A DNA stretch of 64,000 nucleotides, taken from Acidobacteriota bacterium. GTDB taxonomy: Bacteria > Acidobacteriota > Vicinamibacteria > Marinacidobacterales > Marinacidobacteraceae. The notes under the pieces are model-generated. The model was not told where the DNA came from. It worked only from the letters and a program-made list of their open reading frames with translations, and ran no database searches. The stretch's first letter is position 1. Every line of letters begins with the position of its first letter. Made by a program: the position numbers and the translations under genes. Below are positions 9,615 to 63,258 of this stretch, piece by piece. The stretch is taken from positions 69,613 to 133,612 of the forward strand of contig JAJEAO010000114.1 of the NCBI GenBank assembly GCA_022822745.1. Direction: 5' to 3'.

Positions 9615-11273
9615 TCAGCCGACGGCTGCGATCCGGGCCCGCTCCTCCAGCGCGATCCGGCGCGTCTCGTCCGGCGAAACGACATCGAACGCCACCTCGC
9701 TGCCGGGCAGCGCCTGCGCGAGACGATGGAGGTCGGGCTCGACGACGACGCCCAGCTTGGGGTATCCGCCGGTCACGCCCTGATCCGGACCCATGACGAT
9801 CGGCTGGCCCGACGCCGGAACCTGGACGGCGCCCGGGGGGCTCCCGTCCGAGACGATCTCGTCCCCGCCGGGAGTGTGGGTCAGACGCGGCCCTTCGAGC
9901 CGCACGCCCATCCGGTTCGAATCGCCCGAAACCCGAAAGCGGAGGTTCGGGAGCTCGGCGAGGCACTGCGGCGGAAAGCAGTCCTCCTGGGGTCCGAGGC
10001 TGATCCGGAGCCGCAGGGCGCCGCTCGCGGGCAGCCGGATGGCCTCCGGCAGATAGCGGTGCTCGCGCGCTCCCGGAGGCTCCGGGCCCACCGGGAGCCG
10101 GTCGCCGGCGCGCAGCCGTCGTCCTTCCAGGCCGCCGAGCCGGGCGAGACGATAGGTGGAGCGCGACCCGAGAACCGCGGGCGCCGCGATGCCTCCGGCG
10201 ACCGCCAGATAGGGCCGGAGCCCCGCCGGCGGGCCGGGAAACCGCAGCACGCTGCCCGCCGGCGCGCGGATGGAGGTTCCGAGCGGAACCCGCCACGGCG
10301 GTCGGCCGGGGAGCTGGAGAACGGCGCGGTGGTCGGCGCCTCCGAGAGCGAAGAGCGCTGCGCCCCGAAAGCGCAGAACCGGCCCCACGAGCGTCATCTC
10401 GAGCCCGGCGGCGGTGTCCGGGTTCCCCACCGCCCGGTTGGCGAGGCGCAACGAGACCGGGTCCGAGGCCCCGGAGCGCGGGACGGCAAGGTGGAGGTGG
10501 CCGAAGCGGCCCAGATCCTGGACGGTGGTCAGCAGCCCGCCCTTCTCGACTTCGATCCGGGTGTCGAAGTCGCCTGTCGGCGCGGGCGCAGGCCGGGTGG
10601 AATCGCTCTCGGGCAGCCGGGAGACCGGCGCGAAGCGGACCACATCCCCCGCGAGGTAGGGGGTGGGGGGTCTCCGGTCGAGATTCCAGAGAAGGCGGGG
10701 ATCCACCCGGCCGAGCACCCGCCACCCGGTCGGCGCCTCCCACGGATAGATCCCGACCTGACGGCGGGCCGTGATCAGCGATCCGGCGGGGACGCGGAGC
10801 CGGGGCGTGGCGCGCCGGGACACATCGAGGCGCGGATCCATCATCCCCATGTAGGCGAAGCCGGGGACGAACCCCATCGCGAGCACGCGGTAGTCCCGCC
10901 CGGCGTGAAGCCGGACCACTTCCTCGACCGGGAGTCCCGACCGCTCGGCGAGGAGCGGCAGATCCTCCCCGTCGTACACGCACGGGATCTCGATGCGCCG
11001 GCGGGGCGGAGGGGCTTCCGGGCTCGCGCGGCGAGCGAGTCGCAGAGCGTGTTTCCGGATGGCCTTCGGGTCGGCGGCCGGGTCGTGGAGAACCAGAACC
11101 GAGCGGTAGCTGGGCAGCGACTCCCGGTAGCCCTCGAACGGCTCCTCGTCGAGGAGCTGCGCCAGCGCCGTCGCCCGCGCGTTCAGTTCGAGAGAGATCC
11201 GATCGCCGAACTCGACGACGAAGGCCGACTCGCCGCCGCCGCGGATCCGGGGTTCGGAGGGGGTTCCGGCCAC
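9615..11273 (-). CDS. pxpBC: 5-oxoprolinase subunits B and C fused (PxpB-PxpC; KipI-KipA / allophanate hydrolase subunits 1+2)
   Basis: N-terminal half aligns with KipI/PxpB and C-terminal half with KipA/PxpC (...GMMDPRLDVSRRATPR... and ...VMGPDQGVTGGYPKLGVV...). It lies immediately upstream of pxpA on the same strand. Confidence 0.8.
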   Translation of the reverse strand: MAGTPSEPRIRGGGESAFVVEFGDRISLELNARATALAQLLDEEPFEGYRESLPSYRSVLVLHDPAADPKAIRKHALRLARRASPEAPPPRRRIEIPCVYDGEDLPLLAERSGLPVEEVVRLHAGRDYRVLAMGFVPGFAYMGMMDPRLDVSRRATPRLRVPAGSLITARRQVGIYPWEAPTGWRVLGRVDPRLLWNLDRRPPTPYLAGDVVRFAPVSRLPESDSTRPAPAPTGDFDTRIEVEKGGLLTTVQDLGRFGHLHLAVPRSGASDPVSLRLANRAVGNPDTAAGLEMTLVGPVLRFRGAALFALGGADHRAVLQLPGRPPWRVPLGTSIRAPAGSVLRFPGPPAGLRPYLAVAGGIAAPAVLGSRSTYRLARLGGLEGRRLRAGDRLPVGPEPPGAREHRYLPEAIRLPASGALRLRISLGPQEDCFPPQCLAELPNLRFRVSGDSNRMGVRLEGPRLTHTPGGDEIVSDGSPPGAVQVPASGQPIVMGPDQGVTGGYPKLGVVVEPDLHRLAQALPGSEVAFDVVSPDETRRIALEERARIAAVG

Positions 11274-11311
11274 GCCGCCGGGAGCGCTCTCGGGCGATGC
11301 GGGTGCGGCGG

Positions 11312-12067
11312 TCAGGTGAGCGGCGCCACCGTCACTCCCGCGTCTTCGAGGAGGCCGCGGACCAGGCGCGCGTTGCCGAGCGCGGCCGGGTTGTCCCCGT
11401 GGAGGCAGAGCGTCTCCGCGTCCAGCTCGACGCGGGATCCGTCGTGAGCCGTCACCGCGCCGGACGCGATCTCGACCGCCTGCGCCGCTGCCCTCTTCGG
11501 GTCGTGGATGACCGAGCCGGGGATGGCCCGCGACTGGAGCGTCCCGTCCGGGTTGTACACCCGGTCGGCGAACGCCTCGCCCGCGTAGCGGAGCCCGGCC
11601 TCGGCCGCCGCGGCCCGCATCGTGGACGAAGTGGCGAGTCCCATGAAGATGAGGTCGTCGCCGACGCGCGCGATGGCGCGGGCGATGGCCGACGCGAGAT
11701 CCGCATCCTTCACCGCCTGGTTGTAGAGCATCCCGTGGGGCTTCACGTGGACCAGCCGCCCGCCGCGGGAGCGGACGAAGGCGGCGAGCGCCCCCACCTG
11801 GTACACGACGTCGGCCTCGACCTCGTCCGGCGAGACCTCGATGAAGCGCCGCCCGAAGCCGCGCAGGTCGTGATGGCCGGGGTGCGCCCCCACGGAAACG
11901 CCGCGCTCCATCGCGAGCTGGACGGTGCGGTCCATGATGAGCGGATCCCCGGCGTGGAAGCCGCAGGCCACGTTCGCCGAAGAGACGATCTCGAGGATCT
12001 CCTCGTCACAGCCGAGGGAGTAGCTCCCGAAGCTCTCGCCCATGTCGCAGTTCAGATCAATGCGCAT
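11312..12067 (-). CDS. pxpA: 5-oxoprolinase subunit A (LamB/YcsF family)
   Basis: MRIDLNCDMGESFG...EIVSSANVACGFHAGDP... is the canonical LamB/YcsF N-terminus; 251 aa. Confidence 0.9.
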   Translation of the reverse strand: MRIDLNCDMGESFGSYSLGCDEEILEIVSSANVACGFHAGDPLIMDRTVQLAMERGVSVGAHPGHHDLRGFGRRFIEVSPDEVEADVVYQVGALAAFVRSRGGRLVHVKPHGMLYNQAVKDADLASAIARAIARVGDDLIFMGLATSSTMRAAAAEAGLRYAGEAFADRVYNPDGTLQSRAIPGSVIHDPKRAAAQAVEIASGAVTAHDGSRVELDAETLCLHGDNPAALGNARLVRGLLEDAGVTVAPLT

Positions 12068-15183: not shown

Positions 15184-15402
15184 CTACGCCAGCCTCCAGA
15201 ACGGCCCGCGGAGTCCGGCCTCGTCGAGAAGGATCTGCTTCGCGGCGACTGAGGCGGGGCGCCAGCCGTCGTCGAAGCGCCCGGCGTACCACGGCGCACT
15301 GAGACGCCCGAGCACCTCGACCGGGACAAACGCGTCGGGTTCCGCGGCCCGGGGCTGCCGGCGCTCCCAGGCAGCCGCGGCGCCTCCCGACCGGAAGGCC
15401 AC
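15184..15402 (-). other. MerB-family C-terminal continuation, in the same reading frame as the upstream MerB-like CDS after a single in-frame TGA (15412..15414); GTG-initiated ORF
   Basis: Translation (...AAAAWERRQ...AFVPVEVLGRLS...) aligns with the MerB C-terminus (...AEDWASKHQ...AIVSVHEAFGLG...). Only TGA + 3 codons separate it from the upstream ORF. Confidence 0.4.
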
Positions 15403-15411
15403 GATGTTGGC

Positions 15412-15864
15412 TCAGGTGAAGTGGATGTCGTCCCAGAACCGCCGGGCGGGAACCGGGAACCGCACGACCGCCTCGGCCGGCCCGACGCGGCCAGCGCGCA
15501 CGGCGAGATCGAACGCTTCCCCGGTCCCCGGGCAGCGAGTCGGGGTGACGCCATCGGTCCCGAGGAGGAGCGGAATCGCCAGGGCGTCCCAGGCGCAGTT
15601 CGCCCAGTAGCTCCCGCTTGGCGTCTCCACCCGGAAGCCGGTGCGAGCCCCGGCGAACGGATGGGCCATGAGGACGCTGCCCGCCGAGTCGAGAACGAGG
15701 ACGTGAGCGGCGGCGAGGGACTCGAGCGCCCGGGTCACCCGTTCCAGCGGGACGCGGAGTCCGGCGGCGAGTTCGGACGGCGTCGGCGTCGCGCCCCGTT
15801 CACGGATGGCGCGGAACAGGCGGCCCCGCATCCGCCACGCGAAGTCCGAGGGGGTCGCGCTCAT
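15412..15864 (-). CDS. alkylmercury (organomercurial) lyase MerB-family protein, possibly truncated by premature TGA
   Basis: YWANCAWDALAIPLLLG matches the MerB C96/D99 block (YAWCALDTLIFPALIG), and RCPGTGEAF matches the C159 block (HCAATGAP). Start ATG overlaps the DoxX stop. Start chosen at internal Met 15864 of ORF 15412..16254. Confidence 0.6.
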   Translation of the reverse strand: MSATPSDFAWRMRGRLFRAIRERGATPTPSELAAGLRVPLERVTRALESLAAAHVLVLDSAGSVLMAHPFAGARTGFRVETPSGSYWANCAWDALAIPLLLGTDGVTPTRCPGTGEAFDLAVRAGRVGPAEAVVRFPVPARRFWDDIHFT

Positions 15865-16313
15865 CACCCTGGCGGGGATCCTGGGGAGCGGCGCCGCGCC
15901 AACCAGGCGTCGAGACTCCAGCGGTCGTCGCCGTGGAGCGCGAGCAGGAGGACGAGGAGCAGGGTGCGCGGGACCACGTGGGCGGAGAAATCGAAGAGCG
16001 GATCGAGAAGGAGATGCCCGAAGGTGACCAGGATCAGAACGCCGCCGAGGCCAGCGGCGGCAGGAAGCCGCCGCCAGCCGAGGAGCAGGAGCGCGCCGCC
16101 GCCGAGTTCCACGAACGGGACCGTTGTTCCCGCGATCCAGAGCGACCACGCCGGCAGGAGAGTGTCCGCGTAGGGCTCCACGAAGAGCGTCCGGGCGTGC
16201 TGCGTCGCCCCCAGCGAGAAGACCTTCCACCACCCGGCCGCGGCGAAGATCCATCCGAGTACGACCCGGACGACGAGCGCCGCCAGCGCCCGCGCGTCCT
16301 GTCGTGATCCCAT
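15864..16313 (-). CDS. DoxX-family integral membrane protein
   Basis: About 150 aa with hydrophobic helices typical of DoxX (PF07681-like ...VRVVLGWIFAAAGWWKV...). Its stop overlaps the MerB-like start by 1 nt. Confidence 0.65.
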   Translation of the reverse strand: MGSRQDARALAALVVRVVLGWIFAAAGWWKVFSLGATQHARTLFVEPYADTLLPAWSLWIAGTTVPFVELGGGALLLLGWRRLPAAAGLGGVLILVTFGHLLLDPLFDFSAHVVPRTLLLVLLLALHGDDRWSLDAWLARRRSPGSPPG

Positions 16314-16389: not shown

Positions 16390-17382
16390 TCAGAAACGGT
16401 AGGACACTCTCAGCGTCGCCGCGACGCCGCTCAGATCGATGGAGAAAGGATGTGCGGCGGCGACGAACAGACCGCCGATCGCTCGGTCGAGGATCCCGGC
16501 GAGTTCATCGAAGTCCGGCTCCTCTCCTGGATCGGAGGCGAAGTCGCTCTCGAAGAGCGCGCGGAAATCAGCGAAGCCGGACTCCGGGCCCTCGAACGTG
16601 GCCCGCCCGAAGCGGCTCCAACGAACCTTGACCCCGAGCGACAGCCTGTCGGTGAGGCGCACGTCGGCGCCCATCAGCACCTGAACGCCGGGCACCGAAT
16701 CCGTTCCCTCGAACTCGAACCCCTGCGAAGCGAAGGCGAGGCCGGGAAAGCCGATCTCTTCTGCCGCCAGAAGCCAGGACAGTCCCGGCGCGACAATGTC
16801 GTATTCGACTTCGGTCGTGGCCCAGCCACCGCCCACTCCGACCCACGGAGTCACGCGGGATCCCGTCTCGAAGTCGTAGTAGAGATTCAGGAAGAGCTGG
16901 CCGGTCTCCGTCTCGAGGCCGCCGATTCCGGCGCCAAGCCCCCCGAACAGGGCATCGAGCCCACCGATCCCCCGATGGCCCCGTCCGAAATGGCCCCGTC
17001 CGAAACCGCGACCGAACCCCGCGTGATCGGGGCCCTGACGCCCTTCCTCGCTGACGCGGCCCAGCATCTCTGCTTCCAGTCGCAGCGCCCCGAGGTCGTA
17101 GCCCACAGTCAACCCGGCAAGCGCCTCGCCGGGGCGATCCATGTGGCGGTCGTTCCAGAGCAGGCCGCCACCCGCCTCGAGGCCGATGACGAACCCTCGA
17201 CGGGCTCGATCCTCCTCGTCGGCCTCGCCGCCGGCGGCGCGAGCGTTTTCGTCATCGGCGGGAGAGGGGTTCCGTGGCTGCCCGGGATCCGCCGCGGCGG
17301 GCGCGATCCCGGCGAGGCAGGCGATCAGCCCCGCGAGGAGAAGGCGGGCGAGAGGCCCGAGGGGACGAGAGTTGTTCTTCAT
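16390..17382 (-). CDS. outer-membrane beta-barrel protein (porin/OmpA-like barrel) with signal peptide
   Basis: Start chosen at internal Met MKNNSRPLGPLARLLLAGLIACLAGIAPAAA (signal peptide) because the upstream 88 aa are Arg-rich artefact. Gly-rich loops, alternating amphipathic strands and a C-terminal ...LRVSYRF ending in Phe are typical of OM barrels. Confidence 0.6.
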   Translation of the reverse strand: MKNNSRPLGPLARLLLAGLIACLAGIAPAAADPGQPRNPSPADDENARAAGGEADEEDRARRGFVIGLEAGGGLLWNDRHMDRPGEALAGLTVGYDLGALRLEAEMLGRVSEEGRQGPDHAGFGRGFGRGHFGRGHRGIGGLDALFGGLGAGIGGLETETGQLFLNLYYDFETGSRVTPWVGVGGGWATTEVEYDIVAPGLSWLLAAEEIGFPGLAFASQGFEFEGTDSVPGVQVLMGADVRLTDRLSLGVKVRWSRFGRATFEGPESGFADFRALFESDFASDPGEEPDFDELAGILDRAIGGLFVAAAHPFSIDLSGVAATLRVSYRF

Positions 17383-17629
17383 GGCGCTGCGCCTCCGTGG
17401 CGCGGGGGAACCGGATCGGGGGATCCGGGAAGGAAAGTCGGTGCGCCCGCGCGGCATCCGGGGATCCGAGCGGCGCTGACGCGGCCCGAAGCGAGGACCG
17501 TGCCAACGACGAGGCCGCGTTCCGAGCGCACACCTGCGACACCTCCCGCGGGCCCGGCAACGCGAGACCGCGCCGCGTCTTCGGCCTCTCCGGTGTATCG
17601 TCAGCCTCCGCCTCTGCGGGAGCGCCACC

Positions 17630-18058
17630 GTGATCGAGTACGACAAGTTCCGGCGCTCGCTCGACCGCCTGGAGGAGCAGATCGCTCACTATCGGGGACT
17701 CGGTCCCTCGGCGCCCCGACTGACCCGGGAAGGCATCGCCGAGTCGGTGATCCGGCGTTTCGAGATCTGCTACGACCGCCTCTGCAAGGTGCTGCAGCGG
17801 CACCTGGTGGAAGCGCTCGGAATCCCTCATCCTCCCCACAGCCCGAATCCGATCCCGCGACTGGCTCACGAGAACGACCTCTTCGAGGCCCCCATCGAAC
17901 AGTGGATGCGTTACTCGCGCGCCCGGATCGCCACGCAGCGCGACGGCGACCGCGACCAGGCGCGCGCCGCACTGGACATCATTCCGGACTTCCTCGACGA
18001 CGCGATCACCCTGTACGAGACGATGACGAGAGAGCGATGGAATCTGCGCCAGCCATAG
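17630..18058 (+). CDS. HEPN-domain protein, HI0074-family nucleotidyltransferase substrate-binding protein (HEPN/MNT toxin-antitoxin component)
   Basis: 142 aa; sequence pattern (...RRFEICYDRLCKVLQRHL...) fits the HI0074/HEPN family. It overlaps the downstream MNT gene by 22 nt. Confidence 0.7.
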   Translation: MIEYDKFRRSLDRLEEQIAHYRGLGPSAPRLTREGIAESVIRRFEICYDRLCKVLQRHLVEALGIPHPPHSPNPIPRLAHENDLFEAPIEQWMRYSRARIATQRDGDRDQARAALDIIPDFLDDAITLYETMTRERWNLRQP

Positions 18059-18393
18059 ACATCACCCCTGCCGCCCGTCGGGTTGTCCTGGACCTCATCG
18101 CGAAGCACCTGCCGAACACCGAGGTCTGGCCCTACGGCTCGCGGGTCCGGGGAACTTCCACTCCGAAGTCCGACCTCGACCTCGTGGCCCTTGCGGAGCC
18201 CGACAGCGTCGCCGCCGTCGCCGAGCTTCGGGAGGCATTCGAGGAGAGTTTCCTCCCGTTCCGCGTGGACCTCTGGGTCTGGAAGGAGATCCCTGCGTCG
18301 TTCCGGCAGCAGGTCGCGATGCGCCACGCCGTGCTGGCGCACGGCGACGAATCGAACGAACGCGAAACACAGTCAACGGCAGACGCAGACTGA
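18037..18393 (+). CDS. minimal nucleotidyltransferase (MNT, HI0073-like) partner of HEPN protein
   Basis: GS-x9-12-DxD motif: WPYGSRVRGTSTPKSDLDLVAL; 118 aa. Start chosen at internal Met MESAPAID within the long artefactual ORF 16450..18393. Confidence 0.75.
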   Translation: MESAPAIDITPAARRVVLDLIAKHLPNTEVWPYGSRVRGTSTPKSDLDLVALAEPDSVAAVAELREAFEESFLPFRVDLWVWKEIPASFRQQVAMRHAVLAHGDESNERETQSTADAD

Positions 18394-18424
18394 CGGCACC
18401 CGACCCGCATTCCCGGAGGACGCC

Positions 18425-20533
18425 ATGACCGAACCTGAACCCGCCGCCAACCGCGCACTCGATCTCAAGAGCGACGAGGGTCTCCGCGAGGCCTGTCGCC
18501 GCGCCGAAGCAGCAATGGACCCGGAGCGGATCCGCACACTGGCCGACTACCTGAAGCGCGTCCACGACTTTCCCGCCGAGGAACGCTCCTCGCTGGGGTT
18601 CCACGAACTCATCTGGCTGGACGAAACCATCTGGAAGCCGAGACCTGGACATGCCCCCGGTATGGAAGAGATCCTCTCGAGTATCGAGTTCCGGCAGTGG
18701 TTCGCGGACCAGATCGAGGCGCCTCTCGCGGGGTCCGAACCGGCTCACTGGGAGCAGGAGTTCCAGCGCCTGTTTCGGGAAGTTCGCGAGTACAGCGGGG
18801 TCGGGAGGAAGTGGAAACCAAAGCTGGTCGTGCTACGGGGCCTGGCCGCGATCTTCCCGCGCCACCTGAGCGGGGTTGCCCGGACTGGCCACGCTGCAGC
18901 ACTGGCCCGGAAAATGGGGATTTCGACGACCTCGGGAACCGCCGGCACGCGCATCGCCGGCAGACTGGACAAGGTGCTCGGCCCAGTGGGCGACGAGGAC
19001 TGGAAGTCCATCGCAACGCGCATGGAGCTCTCGATCGCTCTCTGGCGGAAGTACGTCCGTGATCCGCGCTACTGGCTCCTCGCCCTCGGTGAGAAGTCGC
19101 ATCGGTGGAAGTCGTGCAAACAGACGGGAGTAGCCACTCTGGGTTGGGACGTCGCCGGTGACCTCAGAAAGTATGCGACAAGGGACGACATTCCGCTGAA
19201 GTCCAATAGCTCGTTGGCCTGCTGGCAATTCTCCCGCGAGATGCAGCCAGGGGACGTCATCTTCGTCAAGCTCGGATCGAGGAGTGTGCTCGGGCACGGC
19301 ATCATCCAGTCGAACTACCGCTTCGAGGGAGAACGTCCGGATCACCGCAACGTGCGCGACGTAGAGTGGCGTTCCGACATGGGGCCCGAGGGGGCGAGGG
19401 TGGACTTCGGTCCTACCGAGATCGAGCAGTTCCCCTTGAAGACCCTGACGAATATCACGAGCTACAGGTTGATACAGCAACAGATTCGGCGCGCCCTCGG
19501 TGTCCTCCCCGGGCCGACTCCTCCGGACCCCAAGCGGCTGATCACGCCGGAGGTTCCCTCGCTACTGACTGTGGTCGAGGCCTTCGAGCGGCTGCGTGAG
19601 GCAGAGGAGCCCCTCAGATTTCCCGCCGAGCTGGTGGAGACACTCCACACCGGGCTGTGGACGGACGAGAGGCGGCACTTTGCGGTGCTCACCGGACTCT
19701 CGGGCGCAGGCAAGACGCGGCTCGCGCTCGAATACGCCAGGACGATCACTGCGGGCGACAGGGACGCCACAGTGACGATCACGGTGCAGCCCGGATGGCA
19801 CGACCCGGCGCACCTCCTCGGCCATGTGAACCCGTTGAATGCGGAGGAGTACTTTCGGACGCCGTTCCTGAACCTGCTGCTCCGCGCGAGGGACCGCCCG
19901 GCGACGCCGCATGTCGCGATTCTCGACGAGATGAACCTCTCCCATGTCGAGCAGTACCTGGCGCCGGTCCTGAGCGCCATGGAGACCGGGGATGCGCTCG
20001 CGCTCCACGAGTCGGACGAGATCACGGATGTCCCGAAGGAGCTTCCCTACCCCTCGAATCTGGTCCTGATCGGAACCGTGAACATGGACGAGACGACGGT
20101 CGGCATCTCGGACAAGGTGCTGGACCGGGCGTTCACGCTGGAGTTCTGGGACATCGAAGTCGAGGAGTGGGCCGGCTGGGACGGATGCAGACTGAACGAC
20201 AAGGACCGGGAGGTCGTCCGAGGCGTCCTCGACGACCTGATGGCGGCGCTGAAACCGGCGCGGCTCCACTTCGGTTGGCGGGTGATCCGGGAGGTCGCGC
20301 GCTTCGTCGAGCGCTCGATCTCGGATGAGATCGCCCGCGACAAGGCGCTCGACCGGGTCGTGTATGCCAAGGTGCTGCCGAAGCTGCGGGGCGACGACTC
20401 CGAACGCTTCCGGACGGCGCTCAAGGCATGCCGGAAGGCCCTCGAGAAGCACGGGCTGATGAAGTGCCGGAGCAAGGTGAAGGAGATGAAGTCCGACCTC
20501 GACGAGACCGGCAGCGTCCGCTTCTGGCGGTAG
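18425..20533 (+). CDS. mcrB: McrB-family AAA+ GTPase (type IV restriction, 5-methylcytosine-type) with N-terminal unknown domain + EVE/PUA-like domain
   Basis: Walker A LTGLSGAGKTRLA, Walker B VAILDEMN, and the McrB-specific block LIGTVNMDETTVGISDKVLDRAF (cf. IIGTMNTADRSLAVVDYALRRRF). Residues about 246-355 (RYWLLALGEKSHRW...GDVIFVKLGSRSVLGHGIIQSNYRFEGE...VEW) match the EVE fold. GGAGGA sits 5 nt upstream of ATG 18425. The first 114 codons of ORF 18083.. are artefact. Confidence 0.8.
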   Translation: MTEPEPAANRALDLKSDEGLREACRRAEAAMDPERIRTLADYLKRVHDFPAEERSSLGFHELIWLDETIWKPRPGHAPGMEEILSSIEFRQWFADQIEAPLAGSEPAHWEQEFQRLFREVREYSGVGRKWKPKLVVLRGLAAIFPRHLSGVARTGHAAALARKMGISTTSGTAGTRIAGRLDKVLGPVGDEDWKSIATRMELSIALWRKYVRDPRYWLLALGEKSHRWKSCKQTGVATLGWDVAGDLRKYATRDDIPLKSNSSLACWQFSREMQPGDVIFVKLGSRSVLGHGIIQSNYRFEGERPDHRNVRDVEWRSDMGPEGARVDFGPTEIEQFPLKTLTNITSYRLIQQQIRRALGVLPGPTPPDPKRLITPEVPSLLTVVEAFERLREAEEPLRFPAELVETLHTGLWTDERRHFAVLTGLSGAGKTRLALEYARTITAGDRDATVTITVQPGWHDPAHLLGHVNPLNAEEYFRTPFLNLLLRARDRPATPHVAILDEMNLSHVEQYLAPVLSAMETGDALALHESDEITDVPKELPYPSNLVLIGTVNMDETTVGISDKVLDRAFTLEFWDIEVEEWAGWDGCRLNDKDREVVRGVLDDLMAALKPARLHFGWRVIREVARFVERSISDEIARDKALDRVVYAKVLPKLRGDDSERFRTALKACRKALEKHGLMKCRSKVKEMKSDLDETGSVRFWR

Positions 20534-27086: not shown

Positions 27087-28229
27087 ATGACGACACAACG
27101 GGCGCGGCGGCTCCTCCTCGGCGCCGCCATGGGAGGGGCCGCGGTGGCGGCGGCATTCGTCTTCGCGGCGACGCGGGGCCCCGAGGAGGGCGCGGAGGCG
27201 AAGGCCATCGCCGCGGAAGAAGCCGCCGCTCCGACGCCGGTGACGGTGGTGGAGGCTCGGCGCGGACCGGTGGCCGTTCAGGTGGCGACGACATCCTCGG
27301 TGGAGGCGGAGCGGACCGCGAAAGTGCTGTCGCAGACCTCCGGCGTGCTCACCGAAGTGCGGGTGCGCGAGGGGGATCAGGTCGCGGCCGGTCAGGTGCT
27401 CGCCCGGGTGGATCCGCGGGATCGCCAGCTCGCGCTCGAACAGGCCGAGCTCCGGCTCGCCCGCGCCGAAGCCGAGCTCTCGCGCCAGGCCCGCGCGTTC
27501 GAAGCCGACCTCGTCTCCGAGTACGACTTCGACAAGGCGAAGTTCGATCGCGATCTCGCCGCCTCCGAGCGCGAGACGGCCCGGCTCGAACTCGACCGCA
27601 CCGAGATCCGGGCGCCGTTCGCCGGACGGGTCACCGAAGTCCTCCTCGTCGCCGGGGCACACCTCGATCCGGCGCAGCAGCTTCTGACGCTGAGTGACTT
27701 CGACACGCTCGTCGTTCGGCTCTACCTGCCGGAGCGCGATGTCGTCGGCCTCGCCCCCGGGCAACGGGCGCGAGTGCGCCCCGAGTCCGAGGTCGGCGAG
27801 GCGCTTCCCGGCCGCATCCGCGAGATCAGCCCGGTCGTGGATCCGACGACCGGAACCGTCAAGGTGACCGTCGAGGTCCCCAGTCCTCGTCGCGCTCCGT
27901 CCGGCGCGGCGACGGTGCGGCCGGGGTCGTTCGCGCGCGTGGTGATCGAGACCGGACGCCGCGAGGACGCCGTCCTCGCCCCGAAGCGCGCCGTCATCCA
28001 GTCCGGCGGCGACGCCCACGTGTTCGTGGTCGAGGACGGGCGGGCAATCCGCCGCGCGGTCGCGCTGGGCGTCGAACTCGACGCTCCCGGCGGCGCGCTG
28101 GTCGAACTCGTCACCGGAGACGAGGACCGGATCCTCCCCGGCGCCCGGCTGGTCGTGGCGGGCATGGGTTCGCTGACCCCCGGCGACCCGGTCGAAGTCC
28201 TGAACCCGCCGACCCGACCCGCCGGCTGA
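27087..28229 (+). CDS. RND efflux periplasmic adaptor (membrane fusion protein, HlyD/AcrA family)
   Basis: N-terminal TM/signal, coiled-coil region and beta-barrel/MP domains typical of MFPs (...RVDPRDRQLALEQAELRLARAEAEL...); 380 aa. Confidence 0.8.
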   Translation: MTTQRARRLLLGAAMGGAAVAAAFVFAATRGPEEGAEAKAIAAEEAAAPTPVTVVEARRGPVAVQVATTSSVEAERTAKVLSQTSGVLTEVRVREGDQVAAGQVLARVDPRDRQLALEQAELRLARAEAELSRQARAFEADLVSEYDFDKAKFDRDLAASERETARLELDRTEIRAPFAGRVTEVLLVAGAHLDPAQQLLTLSDFDTLVVRLYLPERDVVGLAPGQRARVRPESEVGEALPGRIREISPVVDPTTGTVKVTVEVPSPRRAPSGAATVRPGSFARVVIETGRREDAVLAPKRAVIQSGGDAHVFVVEDGRAIRRAVALGVELDAPGGALVELVTGDEDRILPGARLVVAGMGSLTPGDPVEVLNPPTRPAG

Positions 28230-28320
28230 TCGCGCCCGTCAGCCCTTCCGCCAGCCACTCCGTCCGACCCGCCGACCGCCGCTTCGTCGGCCTGAAGTCC
28301 ATGCTCCGGGAGGTCTCCGC

Positions 28321-31300
28321 GTGAAATCCCTCATCGCCGGCTGCGTCCGTCGCCCGGTGAGCGTCGCCATGTTCACCGTGGCAGCCTGCGTGTTCGGCCT
28401 GGTGGCGCTCTCGCGCCTGCCGGTGAACCTGCTCCCCGAGATCTCCTACCCGACGCTCACGGTCGAGACCCGGATGCCGGGCGCCGCCCCGATCGAAGTC
28501 GAGACGCTCGTGACCCGTCCCATCGAGGAGGCGGCGTCGGTGACTCCCGGGCTCCGGCGGGTCACCTCCCGCTCGCGGGCCGGGGTCTCGGAGGTGACGC
28601 TCGAGTTCGTCTGGGACACGAACATGGACTTCGCCGGGCTCGATGTCCGGGAGAAGGTGGACTCCGTCGTTCTCCCGGAAGACGCCGAGCGGCCCCGGGT
28701 GCTTCGCTTCGACCCCTCCTCCGACGCGGTGCTCCGACTGGGGGTCTCGGGAGAGCTCCCGCTGTCGCGGCTGCGGGAGTGGACCGAAGAGGAGCTGAAG
28801 AAGGATCTCGACTCGGTCGAGGGAGTGGCGGCGGTCCGGATCGAGGGCGGACAGATCCGCGAGATCCAGGTGGACGTGGACCAGGGACGGCTGGTCGCCT
28901 ACGGGATCACGGTCGCCGAGGTCTCCGACGCCATCGCGGCGGCGAACGTGAACGCCGCCGGGGGGAGCGTCTTCGAGGACGAGGCCCGCTACCTGGTGCG
29001 GACGCTGAACGAGCTGGACACGCTCGACCGGATCGGAGCCACCATCGTGAAGGACGAGGAAGGGCGTCGGGTGCGGGTCCGGGACGTGGCCGAGGTGCGA
29101 TCCGGCTTCCGCGAGCAGGAAGTCATCCTCCGCAACGGCGACGACGAGGGCGTCGAGGTCCGGATCTTCAAGGAGGGCGACGCCAACACGGTCGCCGTCG
29201 CCGGGGCCGTCCGCGAGCGGTTGGACGCGGTCTCGGAGGAGGTGCCCGCGGGCGTCGCGCTCGCCGTGCTGTTCGACCAGTCCGGCTTCATCGAGGAGGC
29301 GATCTCGGAGGTCGTCACGAACGCCTGGCAGGGCGGGCTGCTCGCCATCCTCGTCATCGCGCTCTTCCTGCGCGAGCGGCGGGCGACGACCGTGGTTGCG
29401 CTCGCGATCCCGGTGTCGGTGGTCGCGACCTTCTTCGTGATGGAGCAGATGGGGCTCTCGCTGAACATCATGTCGCTCGGCGGGCTCGCGCTCGGGGTGG
29501 GGATGCTGCTCGACGACTCGATCGTCGTGCTGGAGGCGATCCACCGGCGGAAGGCCGCCGGAGAAGCGGCCCCCGGCGCCGCGGTGGCGGGCGCCGTGGA
29601 GGTCGCCGGACCGGTGGTCGCGTCCACGCTGACCACGGTGGCGGTCTTCCTGCCCATCGTGTTCGTGGAGGGCGTCGCCGGACAGCTCTTCCGGGATCAG
29701 GCGCTCACGGTCTCGATCTCGATCCTCGCCTCGCTCGGCTTCTCGCTGGCGCTGATCCCGGTCCTCGCGGCCCGCGGGGGCGCGGACCTCGCGGCGGCGC
29801 CGGCGGCGAACGATGTCCGGCCCGGACTCTTCGTGCGCCTGCTTCGGGGGTTCCGGATCGGCGTCCGCGGGATCGGCCGCGGACTCGCGTTCCCGTTCCG
29901 GCCCGTGCTCCGGGGCTTCGTCGCCGCCGAGACCGCTCTCTCCCGCGGCTACCCGCCGCTCCTCCGCGCCGCGCTCGCCCGGCCCGCGGCGGTCTTCCTG
30001 CTGGCCGCCGGGCTCCTCGGGGGTACCGCCTTCGTCGGCTGGCGGGGCGTGGGCGTCGAACTCATCCCCCAGCTCGCCCAGGGCGAGTTCCACTTCGACA
30101 TCCACCTTCCCGAGGGCTCGGCGGTCGGCGCCACCGATTCGGTCGCCACCGAGGTCGGGGCCGCCGCGGCTCGGCTTCCCGGCGTCCGGCGGGTCACGAC
30201 GGAGGCCGGCGCCGTCTCCGGCGGCGGCTTCGGCGGCGCCTCCGGCCGCGCCGAGCACCGAGGACGGATCTCGGTGACGATGGAAGCGCCGGACGACGAA
30301 GGCGCCGAGGCGGCGGCGATCGAAGCGGTGCGCTCCGCCCTCGCCTCCCGCCCCGGGCTCCGTTCCGAGTTCGGCCGCCCCTCGTACTTCAGCTTCCGCC
30401 AGCCCGTCGAGGTCGAGGTCTTCGCCGACGAGGCGGGCGCGCTCGAACCGGCGGCGCGGCGCGTCCGCGAGGCGGTCGCCGCGGTCCCGGGACTCGCCGA
30501 TGTGCGTTCCACCGCCGAGGCGGGGAGCCCGGAGATCCGGGTCCGGTTCGAGGCCGACCGGCTCGCCTCCATGGGCCTTTCGGTGGATCGGGCCTCGGAG
30601 GCTCTCCGCGCGAAGCTGCGCGGGCAGGTCGCCACCCGGCTCGACGAGGGCGACCGCCGCATCGAGGTCGTGGTCCGCGGGGGCGACGACCTGCGGACCC
30701 GGGCGACGGCGGTCCCCGAGCTCATCGTGCACGCCGAAGACGCCCGGCCGGTGCTCCTCCGGGCGCTCGGCGAGGCGGAGGTGGGACTCGGGCCCGCCGA
30801 GCTGCGGCGCGTCGGCCAGCGGCCCGCCGTCGTCATCTCGGGGAACCTGGAGGGGACCGATCTCGGCGCCGCCACCGAGGAGATCACGGCCCGGATCGCC
30901 GGCATCGGGCTGCCGCCGGGGGTGACGACCCGGTTCGCCGGACAGCGCGCGGAGATGGAACGGTCGTTCGCGAGCCTCGCCCTCGCCATCGGACTCGCCA
31001 TCTTCCTCGTGTACTTCGTCATGGCCAGCCAGTTCGAGTCGCTGCTCCACCCGTTCCTCATCCTGTTCACGATTCCGCTGGGCGCGATCGGGGTGATCTG
31101 GGCGCTCCTCGTGACCGGGTCGAACCTGAGCGTCATCGTGCTCATCGGGGTCGTGATGCTCGCCGGGATCGTCGTGAAGAACGCCATCGTGCTCGTGGAC
31201 TGCATCAACCGCCTCCGCCGCGAGGGGATGGAGAAGACCGAGGCCATCGTCGCCGCCGGACGGATCCGGCTGCGGCCGATCCTGATGACGACCCTGACCA

Positions 31301-31467
31301 CGATCCTGGGCCTCCTGCCCATGGCGCTCGGGCTGGGCGAGGGGGCCGAGATCCGCGGCCCGATGGCGGTCACGGTGATCGGCGGGCTCCTCGTCTCGAC
31401 GCTGCTGACGCTGGTCGTGATCCCCACCGCCTACCAGGTCGCCGATCGCAGGGAGTTCTCCGCGTGA
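28321..31467 (+). CDS. RND efflux transporter permease (AcrB/MdtB-like), copy 1, GTG start
   Basis: 1048 aa, 12-TM RND architecture, N-terminus MKSLIAGCVRRPVSVAMFTVAA... typical of AcrB family. Confidence 0.85.
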   Translation: MKSLIAGCVRRPVSVAMFTVAACVFGLVALSRLPVNLLPEISYPTLTVETRMPGAAPIEVETLVTRPIEEAASVTPGLRRVTSRSRAGVSEVTLEFVWDTNMDFAGLDVREKVDSVVLPEDAERPRVLRFDPSSDAVLRLGVSGELPLSRLREWTEEELKKDLDSVEGVAAVRIEGGQIREIQVDVDQGRLVAYGITVAEVSDAIAAANVNAAGGSVFEDEARYLVRTLNELDTLDRIGATIVKDEEGRRVRVRDVAEVRSGFREQEVILRNGDDEGVEVRIFKEGDANTVAVAGAVRERLDAVSEEVPAGVALAVLFDQSGFIEEAISEVVTNAWQGGLLAILVIALFLRERRATTVVALAIPVSVVATFFVMEQMGLSLNIMSLGGLALGVGMLLDDSIVVLEAIHRRKAAGEAAPGAAVAGAVEVAGPVVASTLTTVAVFLPIVFVEGVAGQLFRDQALTVSISILASLGFSLALIPVLAARGGADLAAAPAANDVRPGLFVRLLRGFRIGVRGIGRGLAFPFRPVLRGFVAAETALSRGYPPLLRAALARPAAVFLLAAGLLGGTAFVGWRGVGVELIPQLAQGEFHFDIHLPEGSAVGATDSVATEVGAAAARLPGVRRVTTEAGAVSGGGFGGASGRAEHRGRISVTMEAPDDEGAEAAAIEAVRSALASRPGLRSEFGRPSYFSFRQPVEVEVFADEAGALEPAARRVREAVAAVPGLADVRSTAEAGSPEIRVRFEADRLASMGLSVDRASEALRAKLRGQVATRLDEGDRRIEVVVRGGDDLRTRATAVPELIVHAEDARPVLLRALGEAEVGLGPAELRRVGQRPAVVISGNLEGTDLGAATEEITARIAGIGLPPGVTTRFAGQRAEMERSFASLALAIGLAIFLVYFVMASQFESLLHPFLILFTIPLGAIGVIWALLVTGSNLSVIVLIGVVMLAGIVVKNAIVLVDCINRLRREGMEKTEAIVAAGRIRLRPILMTTLTTILGLLPMALGLGEGAEIRGPMAVTVIGGLLVSTLLTLVVIPTAYQVADRREFSA

Positions 31468-34400
31468 GCCTGCCGCGCCTGGCCGTGAACCGGCCGGTCA
31501 CGACCGCCATGGTGCTCCTCAGCACACTGGTTCTCGGCGTCATCTCGTTCGGACGGATCCCGCTCGCGTTCCTGCCCGATGTGGACTTCCCCGGCGTCTT
31601 CGTGACCGTCCCCTACCAGAACGCGAGCCCGGCGCAGGTCGAGCGCGAGATCGTGCGGCCGCTCGAAGAAGCTCTCGCCACGATCCCGGGCGCCCGCCGG
31701 ATCCGCTCCACCGCGGAAGCCGACCAGGCGAGCCTGCAGCTCGAGTTCACCTGGGGCGAGAGCGTGGATGTGGCGCGGGCCAAGGTGTTCGAGGCGGTGG
31801 AGGACGCCCGTCCGGAGCTCCCGGACGATGTGCGCGAGATCCACGTGAACACGTTCTCCACGACGCAGATCCCGATCGTGGAGGCGCGCATCGCGGCGCC
31901 GGGGATGGATCTCTCGGCGAACTACGAGCGGCTCGACCGCCGGGTCGCCGACCCGATCCGGCGCATCCCCGGAGTGGCGCGGGTGGATCTGAACGGGGTC
32001 GAGCCGCGCGAAGTCCGGATCAACCTGCGCGCCGACCGGATCGCCGCCCATCGGGTGGACCTCGGCGATGTCGCCGACCGGGTGCAGAACATGAACCGCA
32101 ACCTCTCGCTGGGCCGGGTGCGGGCGGGAGCGGAGGTCACGCCGGTCCGCGGCTTCGGCGCCCTCTCGGAGATCTCGGAGATCGGATCGCTGCCCCTGAA
32201 CGACGCGGGGCTGACCGTCCGGGACGTCGCCGACGTGACCTGGCGGGAGCCGCCGATCCCCTACGGGAGGCGGCTGAACGACGACGCGGCGGTCGGCCTG
32301 ACGGTCTTCAAGTCGGCGGAAGCGAACACCGTCGAGGTCGCCCGGGCGGTCGTGGAGGAAATCGAGACCGGCATCGCCAGCGATCCCGCGCTCGCCGGAA
32401 TCACCCTGTTCGTCTGGGACGACCAGGCCGCCGAGATCACCGCCGGCCTCGCCGGGATCCGCACGGAAGGACTGCTCGGGGCGCTCCTCGCGATCCTCGT
32501 GCTCTTCCTGTTCCTGCGGCGGCTGGACTCCACGACGATCGTGAGCCTCACGATCCCGATGTCCATCATCGCGACCGCCACGATCCTCTACTTCGCCGGC
32601 AGGTCGCTGAACGTGCTCTCCATGATGGGCATGATGCTCGGGATCGGCCTCCTGGTGGATGACGCCATCGTGGTGCTCGAATCCGTCGTCCGCGAGCACG
32701 CCCGTGGGCTCCCGGCCCGGGTGGCGGCGGTCGTCGGGAGCCGGGCGGTCGCGGGCGCGGTGATCGCCTCGACCGTCACGACCGCGGTCGTGTTCCTGCC
32801 CACCGTGCTCGGGGGGAAGAACGAGATGTCCATCTGGCTGGGCGAGATCGGACTCGCGATCTCGCTCACGATCTTCTGTTCGCTGTTCATCTCGCTCACC
32901 CTGATCCCGCTGGTGAGCTCGCGCCTGCTGGCGCGCCGGCCGTCGGTCCCACCGGCGTGGACGGAGCGGCTCGGCGCCGCCTACCAGCGGGCTCTGCGGT
33001 TCACGCTGCGGCGCCGCTGGATCACGGCCGGGATCGCGGTCGCCTTCCTCGTGACCGCGATCCTCCCCTTCTTCCTCGGACTCTCCACCGCGATGTTCGC
33101 CGGGCTGAACCGGAACCGCATCTTCCTGACCTACGAATTCGCCGACTTCCACTACAAGGAGGACTCGGAGCCGGTGGTGATCGCGGTGGAGAGCGAGATC
33201 GCCGGGATCGCGGACCGGATCGGCGTGGACTCGGTGTACAGCTACTTCGGCGAGAACGAGGCCCAGACGGTGATTTCGCTGGGCGCCGAGCACATCTCCG
33301 ACGAGGAAGGGAAGGCGATCCGGGAGACGGTGCGGGAAGCGCTCCCGGCGCTGCCCGGCGTCCGGATCGTGTTCGGGGACGACGACCAGGAGACCGGCGG
33401 CGAGAGCCTGTTCTTCCGGGTCCGCTTCTACGGGGAGGATTCCGGTCGCTTCCCGGAGGTGCTCGACACGGCGGAGACGCGTCTGCGCGGCATCGAGGGC
33501 GTCACCGACATCCGGAGCCAGCAGGACGACGCCCGCCGGGAGGTCGTCGTGCGGCCCCGCGCCGAGGCGGCGGCGCGGGTCGGCATCACCCCGCGCGACC
33601 TCTCGGAGATCTTCGGCTTCAGCCTCGGCGGCCGGCCGCTCCGGCGGTTCCAGACCGCCGATCGCGAGACCGAGGTGCTGCTCACCATGTCGCAGCAGGA
33701 CATCTCGCGGGTCGAGGATCTGCGCGCGTTCACCCTGATCGGCGACGACGGCGCCCCGGTGCGCCTCGGCGACCTCGCCGACTTCGAGATCGTGGAGCGG
33801 CCCCGCGCCATCTCCCGGGTGGACCGGCGGGTGATGAGCACGCTCCGCGCCGCCTACGAGGGAGAGAACTGGGAGGCGACGCGCGAGACGATCGAGGCCG
33901 AGATGGACGCCCTCGCGCTCCCCGACGGGTTCACCTGGTCCTTCGGAGACCGGATCGCGCAGCAGGACCGGGATCTCCAGACGATGCTCCTGAACTACCT
34001 GCTGGCGCTCATGCTGATCTACATCGTCATGGCGGCGCAGTTCGAGTCGCTGATCCACCCGCTGGCGATCCTGATCTCGATTCCGTACGCGATCTGGGGA
34101 GCGGCGTGGGTGCTGCTCGCGACGAACAGCCCGTTCAACCTGATGGCGCAGATCGGGCTCCTGATCCTCATGGGGATCGTGGTGAAGAACGGGATCGTCC
34201 TGATCGACCACGTGAACCGGTTGCGCCGCGAAGGCATGGAGCGCACGGAGGCGCTGGTCACGGGCGGGCGGGACCGCCTCCGTCCCATCCTGATGACCGC
34301 GGCGGCGACGATGCTGGCGCTGGTCCCGATGGCCGTGGGGCGCACCGGGCTCGACGGGCTCTACTACTTCCCGCTGGCCCGGACGGTGATCGGCGGGCTG

Positions 34401-34544
34401 GCCGCCTCGACCGTCCTGACGCTGCTCATCCTCCCGTTCTTCTACACCCTGCTGGACGATCTGGCGACCGCGGCCCGCCGGGCGTGGCGCCGGGCGACGC
34501 CCCCCGCGCCGACGGTCCGGCCCCGGGAGGCGACAGCGGGCTGA
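31464..34544 (+). CDS. RND efflux transporter permease (AcrB/MdtC-like), copy 2, GTG start overlapping upstream stop (GTGA)
   Basis: 1026 aa; ...SLPRLAVNRPVTTAMVLLSTLVLG... RND N-terminus. It is encoded in the +2 frame of the giant composite ORF 28779..34544. Confidence 0.8.
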   Translation: MSLPRLAVNRPVTTAMVLLSTLVLGVISFGRIPLAFLPDVDFPGVFVTVPYQNASPAQVEREIVRPLEEALATIPGARRIRSTAEADQASLQLEFTWGESVDVARAKVFEAVEDARPELPDDVREIHVNTFSTTQIPIVEARIAAPGMDLSANYERLDRRVADPIRRIPGVARVDLNGVEPREVRINLRADRIAAHRVDLGDVADRVQNMNRNLSLGRVRAGAEVTPVRGFGALSEISEIGSLPLNDAGLTVRDVADVTWREPPIPYGRRLNDDAAVGLTVFKSAEANTVEVARAVVEEIETGIASDPALAGITLFVWDDQAAEITAGLAGIRTEGLLGALLAILVLFLFLRRLDSTTIVSLTIPMSIIATATILYFAGRSLNVLSMMGMMLGIGLLVDDAIVVLESVVREHARGLPARVAAVVGSRAVAGAVIASTVTTAVVFLPTVLGGKNEMSIWLGEIGLAISLTIFCSLFISLTLIPLVSSRLLARRPSVPPAWTERLGAAYQRALRFTLRRRWITAGIAVAFLVTAILPFFLGLSTAMFAGLNRNRIFLTYEFADFHYKEDSEPVVIAVESEIAGIADRIGVDSVYSYFGENEAQTVISLGAEHISDEEGKAIRETVREALPALPGVRIVFGDDDQETGGESLFFRVRFYGEDSGRFPEVLDTAETRLRGIEGVTDIRSQQDDARREVVVRPRAEAAARVGITPRDLSEIFGFSLGGRPLRRFQTADRETEVLLTMSQQDISRVEDLRAFTLIGDDGAPVRLGDLADFEIVERPRAISRVDRRVMSTLRAAYEGENWEATRETIEAEMDALALPDGFTWSFGDRIAQQDRDLQTMLLNYLLALMLIYIVMAAQFESLIHPLAILISIPYAIWGAAWVLLATNSPFNLMAQIGLLILMGIVVKNGIVLIDHVNRLRREGMERTEALVTGGRDRLRPILMTAAATMLALVPMAVGRTGLDGLYYFPLARTVIGGLAASTVLTLLILPFFYTLLDDLATAARRAWRRATPPAPTVRPREATAG

Positions 34545-57706: not shown

Positions 57707-58324
57707 CTACTCGAGCGATTCGAGGGCTTCGAGGAGCGGGGCGTAGTCCTCCACGATCTGGTAGTCGTAGTTCACGTAGCGGAGGACGCCCTCCCGATCC
57801 ACGACGAAGGTCGCGCGGGAGGCGTAGCGGGCTCCGTTGATCTCGATCGGCTCGACGCCGTAGGCGTCCACGACCTGGCTGTCCCGGTCGGAGAGGAGCA
57901 CCAGCGGAGGCAGTTCGCCATCGGCTGCCTGCGGGCGGCCGCCCTTGTCGGCGGAGAAGCTCTCCAGCCAGTTCCACTGCGAGAACGGGGAGTCCACACT
58001 GATGCCGAAGACCATCGCGCCTGCATCCAGAAACTTCTGGATGTCGTCCCGGTAGGACGAAAACTGGCGGGTTCAACCACCGGTCCAATCGGCCACGTAG
58101 AACGCGAGCACGATGTTCTTCTCGCCGATCACATCGTGGAGCGAGATCTGCGTCGCTCCGGGACGCTCGCCGGCGGTGGAAGCGAGGGGATTCGGGAAGG
58201 CGGGAGCGCGGTCCCCCACCTTCAGGGGACCGTCCTGGGCCGCCGCGGGAGCGGGAGAGCCGGCCGCCAGGACGACGACGCCGAGGAGCGGCGCGAGCCA
58301 GCGCAGCGGGGAGGGGCGCTTCAT
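57707..58324 (-). CDS. periplasmic peroxiredoxin (BCP/PrxQ-like, AhpC-TSA/Redoxin fold) with in-frame TGA (58073..58075) at the peroxidatic-Cys position; candidate selenoprotein (alternatively a nonsense-disrupted gene)
   Basis: ORFs 58073..58408 and 57707..58015 are in the same frame with only one stop between them. Joined translation reads ...NIVLAFYVADWTGG[TGA]TRQFSSYRDDIQKFLDAGAMVFGISVDSPFSQWNW..., i.e. the Prx T-x-x-C motif with TGA at C. Signal peptide MKRPSPLRWLAPLLGVVVLAAG. GGAGG lies 10 nt before ATG 58324. Confidence 0.6.
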
Positions 58325-58521
58325 GGGACAACCTCCGGGAGGAAACGGGATCCGGACCCTGGGCGGGTTCCGGTGACGAATGATGGCCGGTTTCGCCGGG
58401 GCGGGCAACCGGGACCGGGCGGACGGGAGAGGGACGCCGCGGGGGGAGCGCGGGCGGTGCTATTCTGATTCTTTGCCCGCTGGCGCGGCGGGCGACCCGC
58501 CTGAGAGAGGTTGATGCATCC

Positions 58522-62126: not shown

Positions 62127-63258
62127 GTGAAGCACGAACTCCTGGAGCGATTCCAGGCGCTGACGCCCCGGATCGGGGTCGTCCGGGGGTTTCTTTGACC
62201 CGGACGGACTGGCGAAGGAGATCGCGGAACTCGACGACCGACTGACCGACGCCTCGGTCTGGTCCGCCTCCGGCGACGGCCAGAGGCTCTCGCGCCGCCG
62301 GGCCGCGCTGGCGGCGGAGCGCTCCCGCGGCGCCGACTTCGAGGAGGTTCTCGAGGAAGTCGAGACCCTGGTGGAATGGGCGCGCGAGGGTGAATCCGTG
62401 GAAGAGGATCTCGCCGAACATCTGAAGCGGCTGGAAGCGGCGCTGGCCGACCTGGAGCTTCGTCAGCTCTTCGCCGGAGAGCACGACACGGAGGACGCGA
62501 TCCTCACGATCAACCCGGGCGCCGGGGGGACCGACGCCCAGGACTGGGCGGGCATGCTGCTCTCCATGTACATCCGGTGGGCGCGCAGCCACGGCTTCGA
62601 CGTCCGGTTGCTCGACGAGCAGCCCGGGGACGAAGCCGGAATCAAGAGCGCGACGCTCGAGGTCCGTGGCGACCACGCCTACGGTCGGCTTCGGGTGGAG
62701 TCCGGCGTCCACCGCCTCGTGCGCATGTCGCCGTTCGACACCCAGCACCGAAGGCACACCTCCTTCGCTTCCGTCGCGGCGTTTCCCGACCTCGACGACC
62801 GGATCGAGATCGAGGTGGACGAGAACGACCTGCGGATCGACACCTTCCGGGCGAGCGGCAAGGGCGGACAGCATGTGAACGTGACCGACTCCGCGGTGCG
62901 CATCACCCATCTCCCGACGGGCCTGGTCGTGTCGTGCCAGAACGAGCGGTCGCAGCACCGCAACCGCGACAGCGCGATGAAGGTGCTGCGCGCGCGGCTC
63001 TACGACCGCGCGGTCCAGGAGGCCAAGGCCCGCGAGGAGGCGGCCAAGGAGGGCCTCGGGGAGAACACCTTCGGGAACCAGATGCGGTCCTACGTGTTCC
63101 AGCCCTACCGGATGGTCAAGGACCACCGAACGAACCACCAGGTCGGTGACGTGGACCGGGTCATGGGGGGCGACCTCGACGGCTTCATCGAGGCCGGGCT
63201 CGTCCTCTCGGGCGGGACCCGGCGGGGACCGGAGAGAGCGGCCGAGCCCGGAGCGTAG
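62127..63258 (+). CDS. prfB: peptide chain release factor 2 with programmed +1 ribosomal frameshift at CTT-TGA-C (62193..62199)
   Basis: GTG 62127 is followed by 23 codons ending ...GGG TTT CTT TGA C with an upstream SD-like GGGGG, the classical prfB autoregulatory site. The +1 frame continues into ORF 62371..63258, which carries SPF and GGQ motifs (...RASGKGGQHVNVTDSAVRITH...). Confidence 0.85.

Follow-up and report, generated by a model that had tools for sequence, protein, structure and literature searches.

Within the MerB (PF03243) superfamily, the closest described system to the locus reported here is SaoL (NF040728), which carries a C-U motif whose selenocysteine (Sec, U) aligns with Cys159 of MerB. 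As described by Haft and Gwadz (bioRxiv 10.1101/2022.07.06.499078 / J Bacteriol 2023), SaoL is confined to strictly anaerobic bacteria, where it belongs to a nine-gene SAO locus. Peng et al. (2016, ISME J, supplement) listed an "Organic mercuric lyase MerB2" among selenoprotein families, and a 2026 inventory (PMC13188914) gives, for the MerB fold, SaoL (CU) only. Reviews also cite the Global Ocean Sampling (GOS) paper of 2008 for a MerB-like selenoprotein; in the accessible parts of its text and supplements we found no mention of one. Here we report on a gene pair in a stretch of 64,000 nucleotides from an Acidobacteriota bacterium (assembly GCA_022822745.1, contig JAJEAO010000114.1, positions 69,613 to 133,612 of the forward strand; hereafter the window), in which a gene for a DoxX-family membrane protein is followed by a MerB-like gene interrupted by an in-frame TGA.

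From comparative sequence evidence we conclude that this TGA, at 15414..15412, is a selenocysteine codon, with a probability of roughly 0.9, a figure that applies to the recoding claim only. The first-pass annotation had offered three options, namely a nonsense mutation, Sec or a sequencing error. Sec is the one that stands, and a pseudogene or an error is excluded, because the TGA is present in 80/80 related loci, the sequence downstream is under purifying selection, homologues carry Cys at the same site, and a hairpin of the selenocysteine insertion sequence (SECIS) type is conserved behind the UGA. The principle of a MerB-like selenoprotein is already known from SaoL; what is new is the subfamily, its motif, its host range and its genomic context. 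We rate this T-U subfamily as new because Haft and Gwadz, Peng et al. and the 2026 inventory mention neither a T-U form nor Gemmatimonadota, Acidobacteriota or DoxX. The features of the locus are as follows.

16313..15864, minus strand: gene for a DoxX-family membrane protein of 149 amino acids (Pfam DoxX, 34.9 bits, E=2.4e-8).
15864..15184, minus strand: full-length MerB-superfamily gene, 226 codons including the predicted Sec151 (Pfam MerB; 80 relatives with the same architecture).
15597..15586, minus strand: codons for Cys90-Ala-Trp-Asp93 (NCAWDA), the equivalents of MerB Cys96/Asp99 (PDB alignment).
15414..15412, minus strand: in-frame UGA, codon 151, probably read as Sec; equivalent of MerB Cys159 (alignment and comparison of loci).
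15411..15187, minus strand: the 75 codons after Sec151 (ANIVAFRS...WYAGR...GLRGPFWRLA), a region that aligns with the C-terminus of a Cys-form homologue, P0083.

The MerB-like frame reads MSATPSDF...NCAWDAL...RCPGTGEAF...FWDDIHFT, TGA, ANIVAFRSGG...WYAGRFDDGW...GLRGPFWRLA, and terminates at a TAG (15186..15184). The stop codon of DoxX, TGA at 15866..15864, shares one base with the ATG of the MerB-like gene at 15864..15862 (UGAUG), which agrees with the translational coupling proposed in the first-pass annotation. The same annotation held that MerB homology continues beyond the TGA, and the profile scores bear this out. The N-terminal 150 amino acids alone matched Pfam MerB with 51.1 bits over profile positions 2-81 of 126, and the read-through product with 79.2 bits over positions 2-125 (cut-off 27). 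When aligned by phmmer with the crystallised MerB, the TGA falls exactly on catalytic Cys159 (hft-C-anivafrs versus sf-C159-C160-hvhffas), and NCAWDA falls on Cys96/Asp99, here Cys90 and Asp93; residues C90, A91, W92 and D93 are invariant in the family alignment (A1). The short open reading frame (ORF) had been credited with a complete set of catalytic residues. The assignment of NCAWDAL to C96/D99 was correct, but RCPGTGEAF is not the C159 equivalent, since it aligns with MerB SHCAATGAPV, the non-catalytic Cys117 region. One of the three catalytic residues is therefore missing from the 150-residue ORF, namely the one encoded by the UGA. With Sec151 at the Cys159 position, all three MerB catalytic positions would be filled.

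A scan of one genome per species yielded 514 related loci, of which the best 80 were retrieved; counts out of 81 given below refer to these 80 plus the window. The first-pass annotation had proposed to inspect the codon at 15412..15414 in relatives, and the outcome was uniform. Following [FY]-T, the codon was TGA in every one of the best 80 loci, with no instance of TAA, TAG or a sense codon, and homologous sequence followed it. The frame after the TGA stays open for 71-90 codons (about 74) and is closed by a mixture of TAG, TGA and TAA. The 80 loci span several phyla, down to ∼38% protein identity. Most belong to Longimicrobiales and other Gemmatimonadota, and the remaining hosts include Acidobacteriota, NC10, Chloroflexota, Actinobacteriota, an Archangium and a Desulfatibacillum metagenome-assembled genome (MAG). 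Complete chromosomes with the gene include OZ246946.1, OZ246950.1 and OZ242973.1. The closest relative, on a Vicinamibacteria MAG chromosome (L001), has its genes arranged as in the window (outer-membrane-like protein, DoxX, MerB-like protein, IspG). In a codon alignment of the downstream part (80 sequences), the conserved residues W15, G39, L50, W54, Y55, R58, W63, G79, L80, G82, F84 and W85 showed a diversity close to zero at the first two codon positions, and of 0.4-0.7 at the third. This pattern indicates that the downstream sequence is translated and is under purifying selection at the protein level.

Protein databases are consistent with a residue that is normally missed by gene callers. 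When the read-through sequence was used as query, 119 of the 120 best protein matches (97% to ∼40% identity) were about 150 residues long, covered 55-66% of the query, and finished at ...FWDDIGFT or close variants thereof. The sole full-length match among these 120, P0083 (∼40% identical), reads ...FWDDIVFT-C-GNIHGFRSD...WYAGR...FWRL, with a Cys at the site of the UGA. This Cys form was in turn used as query in an exhaustive profile-free search of 1.84 billion cluster representatives, which returned 860 relatives. Among the best 150, 72 had Cys at the critical column, 58 ended immediately before it, and four were orphan C-terminal fragments. In a rough neighbor-joining tree the Cys and Sec forms were interspersed, with at least ten switches between them, although this number should be interpreted with caution given the low resolution of the tree.

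The first-pass annotation had seen no hairpin at the distance from the UGA that is usual for a bacterial SECIS. This did not hold up, as a conserved hairpin occupies +17..+32, counting the U of the UGA as +1.

15398..15383, minus strand: core SECIS-like hairpin, CCUUCC / GGUC loop (15392..15389) / GGGAGG (comparative evidence).

The stem begins 13 nucleotides after the UGA and is formed by CCUUCC at +17..+22 and GGAAGG at +27..+32 (GGGAGG in the window), enclosing a loop at +23..+26, and this position is fixed in all 81 sequences. The hairpin of the window is encoded by the codons of A-F-R-S-G-G, and the predicted stem extends to about 15410..15367. All six pairs can form in 56 of the 81 sequences and five of six in another 24; the loop is GGUC in 78. 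Pair 26-41 covaries, being C-G in 38 distinct sequences and U-A in 15, and pair 28-39 alternates between U-A and U-G. The codons that make up the hairpin are moreover frozen at synonymous sites. Arg is encoded by CGG in 81/81 sequences and Ser by UCG in 78/78 of those with Ser at this place, while elsewhere in the same genes CGG accounts for 36% of Arg codons and UCG for 38% of Ser codons. Third-position diversity is 0.00-0.07 in the hairpin codons, compared to 0.4-0.7 elsewhere. In our judgment this freezing argues more strongly for an RNA element than the covariation does.

As a control we inspected seven Cys-form loci, many of which encode F-R-S/T/D at the place of the hairpin. Only 2-5 of the six pairs were formed, Arg was mostly CGC, and a GGUC loop was found in one locus only, so that the conserved hairpin appears specific to the UGA forms and absent from these seven Cys-form loci. 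Rfam did not recognize the element: scanning 15300..15460 by E-value returned no relevant hit and no family matched the hairpin, and at the gathering threshold the whole window returned tRNAs only. Another hairpin, ggcugcc...ggcagcc (15340..15375, minus strand), which the first-pass annotation had noted about 45 nucleotides downstream of the UGA, was considered as the SECIS and rejected because it is not conserved; it is present in the window only, in a segment that is variable in all 80 relatives.

The SECIS of Escherichia coli fdhF has an apical GGUC loop at +22..+25, of which G23 and U24 contact SelB. The hairpin described here resembles it in lying within the coding sequence immediately 3' of the UGA, and in presenting a GGUC loop at +23..+26, one nucleotide further out. 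It differs in its shorter conserved stem (5-6 bp) and in having no evident bulged U.

Some observations weigh against the Sec reading, or limit it, and should be considered together. Covariation support amounts to one or two pairs only, as the core stem is almost invariant. The hairpin of the window has a single-sequence folding z of -0.6, unexceptional for a GC-rich sequence, and the hairpin evidence is comparative rather than thermodynamic. The hairpin also overlaps conserved codons (F-R-S-E), and part of its conservation is accordingly at the protein level. No selA, selB, selD or tRNA-Sec gene was found in the 64-kb window (∼40 ORFs searched for domains) or in the flanks of the related loci, although for a window of 64 kb this negative says little. 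Finally, the function suggested below is inferred solely from the pattern of catalytic residues.

Two further features of the window bear on how UGA is decoded in the source organism.

58408..57707, minus strand: second candidate selenoprotein, a secreted peroxiredoxin (Prx)/Bcp-like protein (AhpC/TSA) with a signal peptide and a UGA at the peroxidatic Cys.
About 62128..63258, plus strand: prfB, the gene for release factor 2 (Pfam PCRF match from profile position 64 in the downstream frame).

In the Prx/Bcp-like gene the TGA at 58075..58073 is located exactly at the peroxidatic Cys (FYVADWTGG-U-TRQF, where homologues have ...G-C-T...), and a 7-bp hairpin with a folding z of -2.9 starts 12 nucleotides after the UGA. 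A search for homologues gave Cys-containing relatives only (best 39% identity) and no close orthologues. Together, the MerB-like and Prx/Bcp-like candidates suggest that the source organism uses selenocysteine. A scan for other in-frame stops based on GC content at third codon positions was discarded as too crude, as it missed even the MerB-like site. The prfB gene carries the classical programmed +1 frameshift site, CTT TGA C at 62193..62199, preceded by a GGGGG Shine-Dalgarno-like run, and this site may be the other recoding event to which the first-pass annotation had alluded.

The best-surviving alternative, though an improbable one, is read-through of the UGA by a near-cognate or suppressor tRNA (Trp, Cys, Arg or Gly) that does not depend on a SECIS, and what can be said for it is that no sel or tRNA-Sec gene was found in the window or the locus flanks. 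Against it, UGA is an ordinary stop in the source genome and the commonest one in the window, where TGA closes 23 of the 35 genes called with confidence and TAG the other 12, and release factor 2 is encoded. Moreover, the site is that of a catalytic Cys with widespread interchange between Cys and UGA, a hallmark of Sec, and the GGUC-loop hairpin is kept at a fixed distance in the UGA forms only.

Slightly less probable still is a split protein, in which translation stops at the UGA and a C-terminal part of 72 amino acids is made from the GTG at 15402 and reassembles with the N-terminal part. A GTG is indeed present four codons after the TGA in the window and in many relatives, and the four database entries for C-terminal fragments were called as separate ORFs. 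Several relatives, however, have no in-frame ATG, GTG or TTG for about 13 codons (e.g. L025: AAC AAC ATC CTC GCC TTC CGG...), although the intervening residues are conserved, and no conserved Shine-Dalgarno-like spacing is found. Nor would a split protein account for a stop that is exclusively TGA and lies exactly on the Cys column of the homologues, or for a hairpin restricted to UGA forms.

That the TGA is a recent nonsense mutation, leaving a pseudogene or a 150-residue product only, we consider very improbable. It is true that the protein is terminated at the TGA by gene callers and in public annotations, as in the entries of 150-163 amino acids named "organomercurial lyase". Yet the short product would have neither an equivalent of Cys159 nor the final third of the MerB fold, and the identical TGA recurs in the best loci across several phyla, to ∼38% identity, with the downstream frame intact and under purifying selection. 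A sequencing or assembly error, for which nothing specific speaks beyond the window being one sequence, can be dismissed given the identical feature in independent assemblies (long-read complete MAG chromosomes, short-read MAGs, and Logan contigs including one that is 97% identical).

With Sec recoding as the preferred reading, the place of the protein in its superfamily can be considered. The AlphaFold2 model of the Cys-form homologue P0083, which is 40% identical to the window protein and serves as its proxy, has a predicted local distance difference test (pLDDT) score of 96.6. Its only significant Foldseek matches in the PDB are MerB2 and MerB (template modelling (TM) score about 0.55-0.6), and its N-terminal domain weakly resembles winged-helix proteins. 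By way of this proxy, the window protein is predicted to have the MerB fold. Its scores against the NCBIfam MerB models NF033555 and NF009710 are 41.4 and 45.1 bits, below the cut-offs of 200 and 193, and it reaches 21.4 bits against the SaoL model NF040728 (cut-off 140), so on sequence scores we regard it as a distinct branch of the PF03243 superfamily.

The comparison with SaoL shows both shared and divergent properties. Both proteins belong to the MerB superfamily, have Sec at the position of Cys159 and keep the equivalents of Cys96/Asp99; the database entries of both are routinely cut at the UGA, and for both a role other than resistance is suspected in the absence of a mer operon. Where SaoL has a CU dipeptide, all 81 sequences of the window clade have [FY]-T-U, and about 75 residues follow Sec in the window protein versus about 50 in SaoL. 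The hosts also differ, being strictly anaerobic Firmicutes, spirochaetes and Deltaproteobacteria for SaoL, and Gemmatimonadota (Longimicrobiales, Gemmatimonadales), Acidobacteriota, NC10, Chloroflexota, Actinobacteriota and Myxococcota MAGs for the window clade. None of the SAO neighbors (ABC transporter, SaoE, SaoC etc.) is present in the window, and the related loci have no conserved neighbor but DoxX. In contrast to SaoL with its nine-gene neighborhood, the window-clade gene is attached to DoxX in one clade and otherwise stands alone. With MerB of E. coli plasmid R831b (PDB 3F0P, 3F2G; MerB2, 5C17) the window protein shares, judging by the proxy model, the fold and a winged-helix-like domain at the N-terminus, along with the positions of Cys96, Asp99 and Cys159. 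It differs from MerB in its low identity (only ∼20%), in having Sec for Cys159, in having no Cys160, and in the absence of merR, merT, merP and merA nearby.

None of merR, merT, merP or merA was found in the window around the MerB-like gene, as the first-pass annotation had already stated. Of the 37 closest loci, 24 have a homologous DoxX gene upstream on the same strand, and in 16 of these it directly adjoins the MerB-like gene. Neither the more distant Sec-form loci nor the Cys-form loci that were inspected have it, so that the coupling is genuine but confined to a clade. De novo clustering of neighbors across the 80 loci returned no universally conserved partner, and its output was largely antisense-ORF noise. 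In 22 loci within L002-L034 (Longimicrobiales) the MerB-like gene is followed at a distance of about 0.3 kb by a same-strand gene for a secreted protein of about 1,120 amino acids, with a repeat or propeller look by eye only; the window has no such gene.

Mechanistically, we propose that the short hairpin, with its stem from +17 and its GGUC loop, directs recoding of the UGA, and that SelB carrying Sec-tRNA(Sec) would bind it, by analogy with E. coli fdhF. In the product, Sec151 would replace the catalytic Cys159 of MerB and join Cys90 and Asp93 in a Cys-Asp-Sec active site. Such a site could serve the handling of soft metals or organometal(loid)s, for example as a carbon-metal bond lyase, or selenol/thiol redox cycling by way of a selenenylsulfide. 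An enzyme of one of these two kinds is, judging by the residues, the most likely reading of its function, and a classical MerB of mercury resistance is unlikely. DoxX, co-translated in one clade, might conceivably anchor or re-reduce the MerB-like enzyme as a membrane partner.

In the window the MerB-like gene is neighbored by DoxX, IspG, an outer-membrane-like protein without assignment, and a nucleotidyltransferase-binding protein. Directly upstream of DoxX is a Gly-rich ORF (16390..17646, minus strand) of 330-418 amino acids that begins like a signal peptide and matches nothing in Pfam; only the Vicinamibacteria MAG L001 has it conserved (68% identity) and in synteny. At 17630..20533 (plus strand) a nucleotidyltransferase substrate-binding (HEPN-like) gene is followed by an 816-residue ORF with a Walker-A motif, GLSGAGKT. 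The latter has no Pfam match at E<=1e-5, and the two genes may represent a defense or toxin-antitoxin-type island beside the operon.

Elsewhere in the window, 27087..34544 (plus strand) holds a gene for an HlyD-type membrane fusion protein and then two tandem resistance-nodulation-division (RND; AcrB-like) genes, at 28321..31467 and about 31470..34544. The second of these is hidden in ORF lists by a spurious upstream extension (28779..34544) that merges frames, and a run of in-frame TAGs at 31.4-34.7 kb, looked at as possible recoding, was traced to an RND transporter gene read in its antisense frame. At 9615..12067 (minus strand) there are genes for LamB/YcsF and a fused carboxyltransferase (CT_C_D + CT_A_B), adjoining a protein of 1,104 amino acids with an M14 carboxypeptidase domain. 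The LamB/YcsF and CT_C_D/CT_A_B arrangement resembles that of 5-oxoprolinase (pxpA, pxpBC), to which it may correspond; these genes belong to ordinary metabolism and are unrelated to the MerB-like finding.

The finding has consequences for annotation, as the gene is entered in hundreds of genomes and in many metagenomic clusters as a 150-residue "organomercurial lyase" that is devoid of its catalytic residue, where the correct product would be a selenoprotein of 220-230 amino acids. For the family, Sec in place of the metal-contacting Cys159 of the MerB fold would have a second lineage, taxonomically and ecologically far from the anaerobe-restricted SaoL. It is a speculative and rather unlikely extension that the T-U clade constitutes a mer-operon-independent organometal(loid) lyase with a Cys-Asp-Sec site, widely distributed among aerobic Gemmatimonadota and Acidobacteriota from soil, the sea and sponges and teamed with DoxX in one clade, which could be among the enzymes behind non-mer degradation of methylmercury or other organometals in the environment. 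More generally, a Cys-Asp-Sec site in organisms without MerA would raise the question of which organometal(loid) or redox chemistry it serves and of how a metal tightly bound to selenium is released, and for this question DoxX offers a lead.

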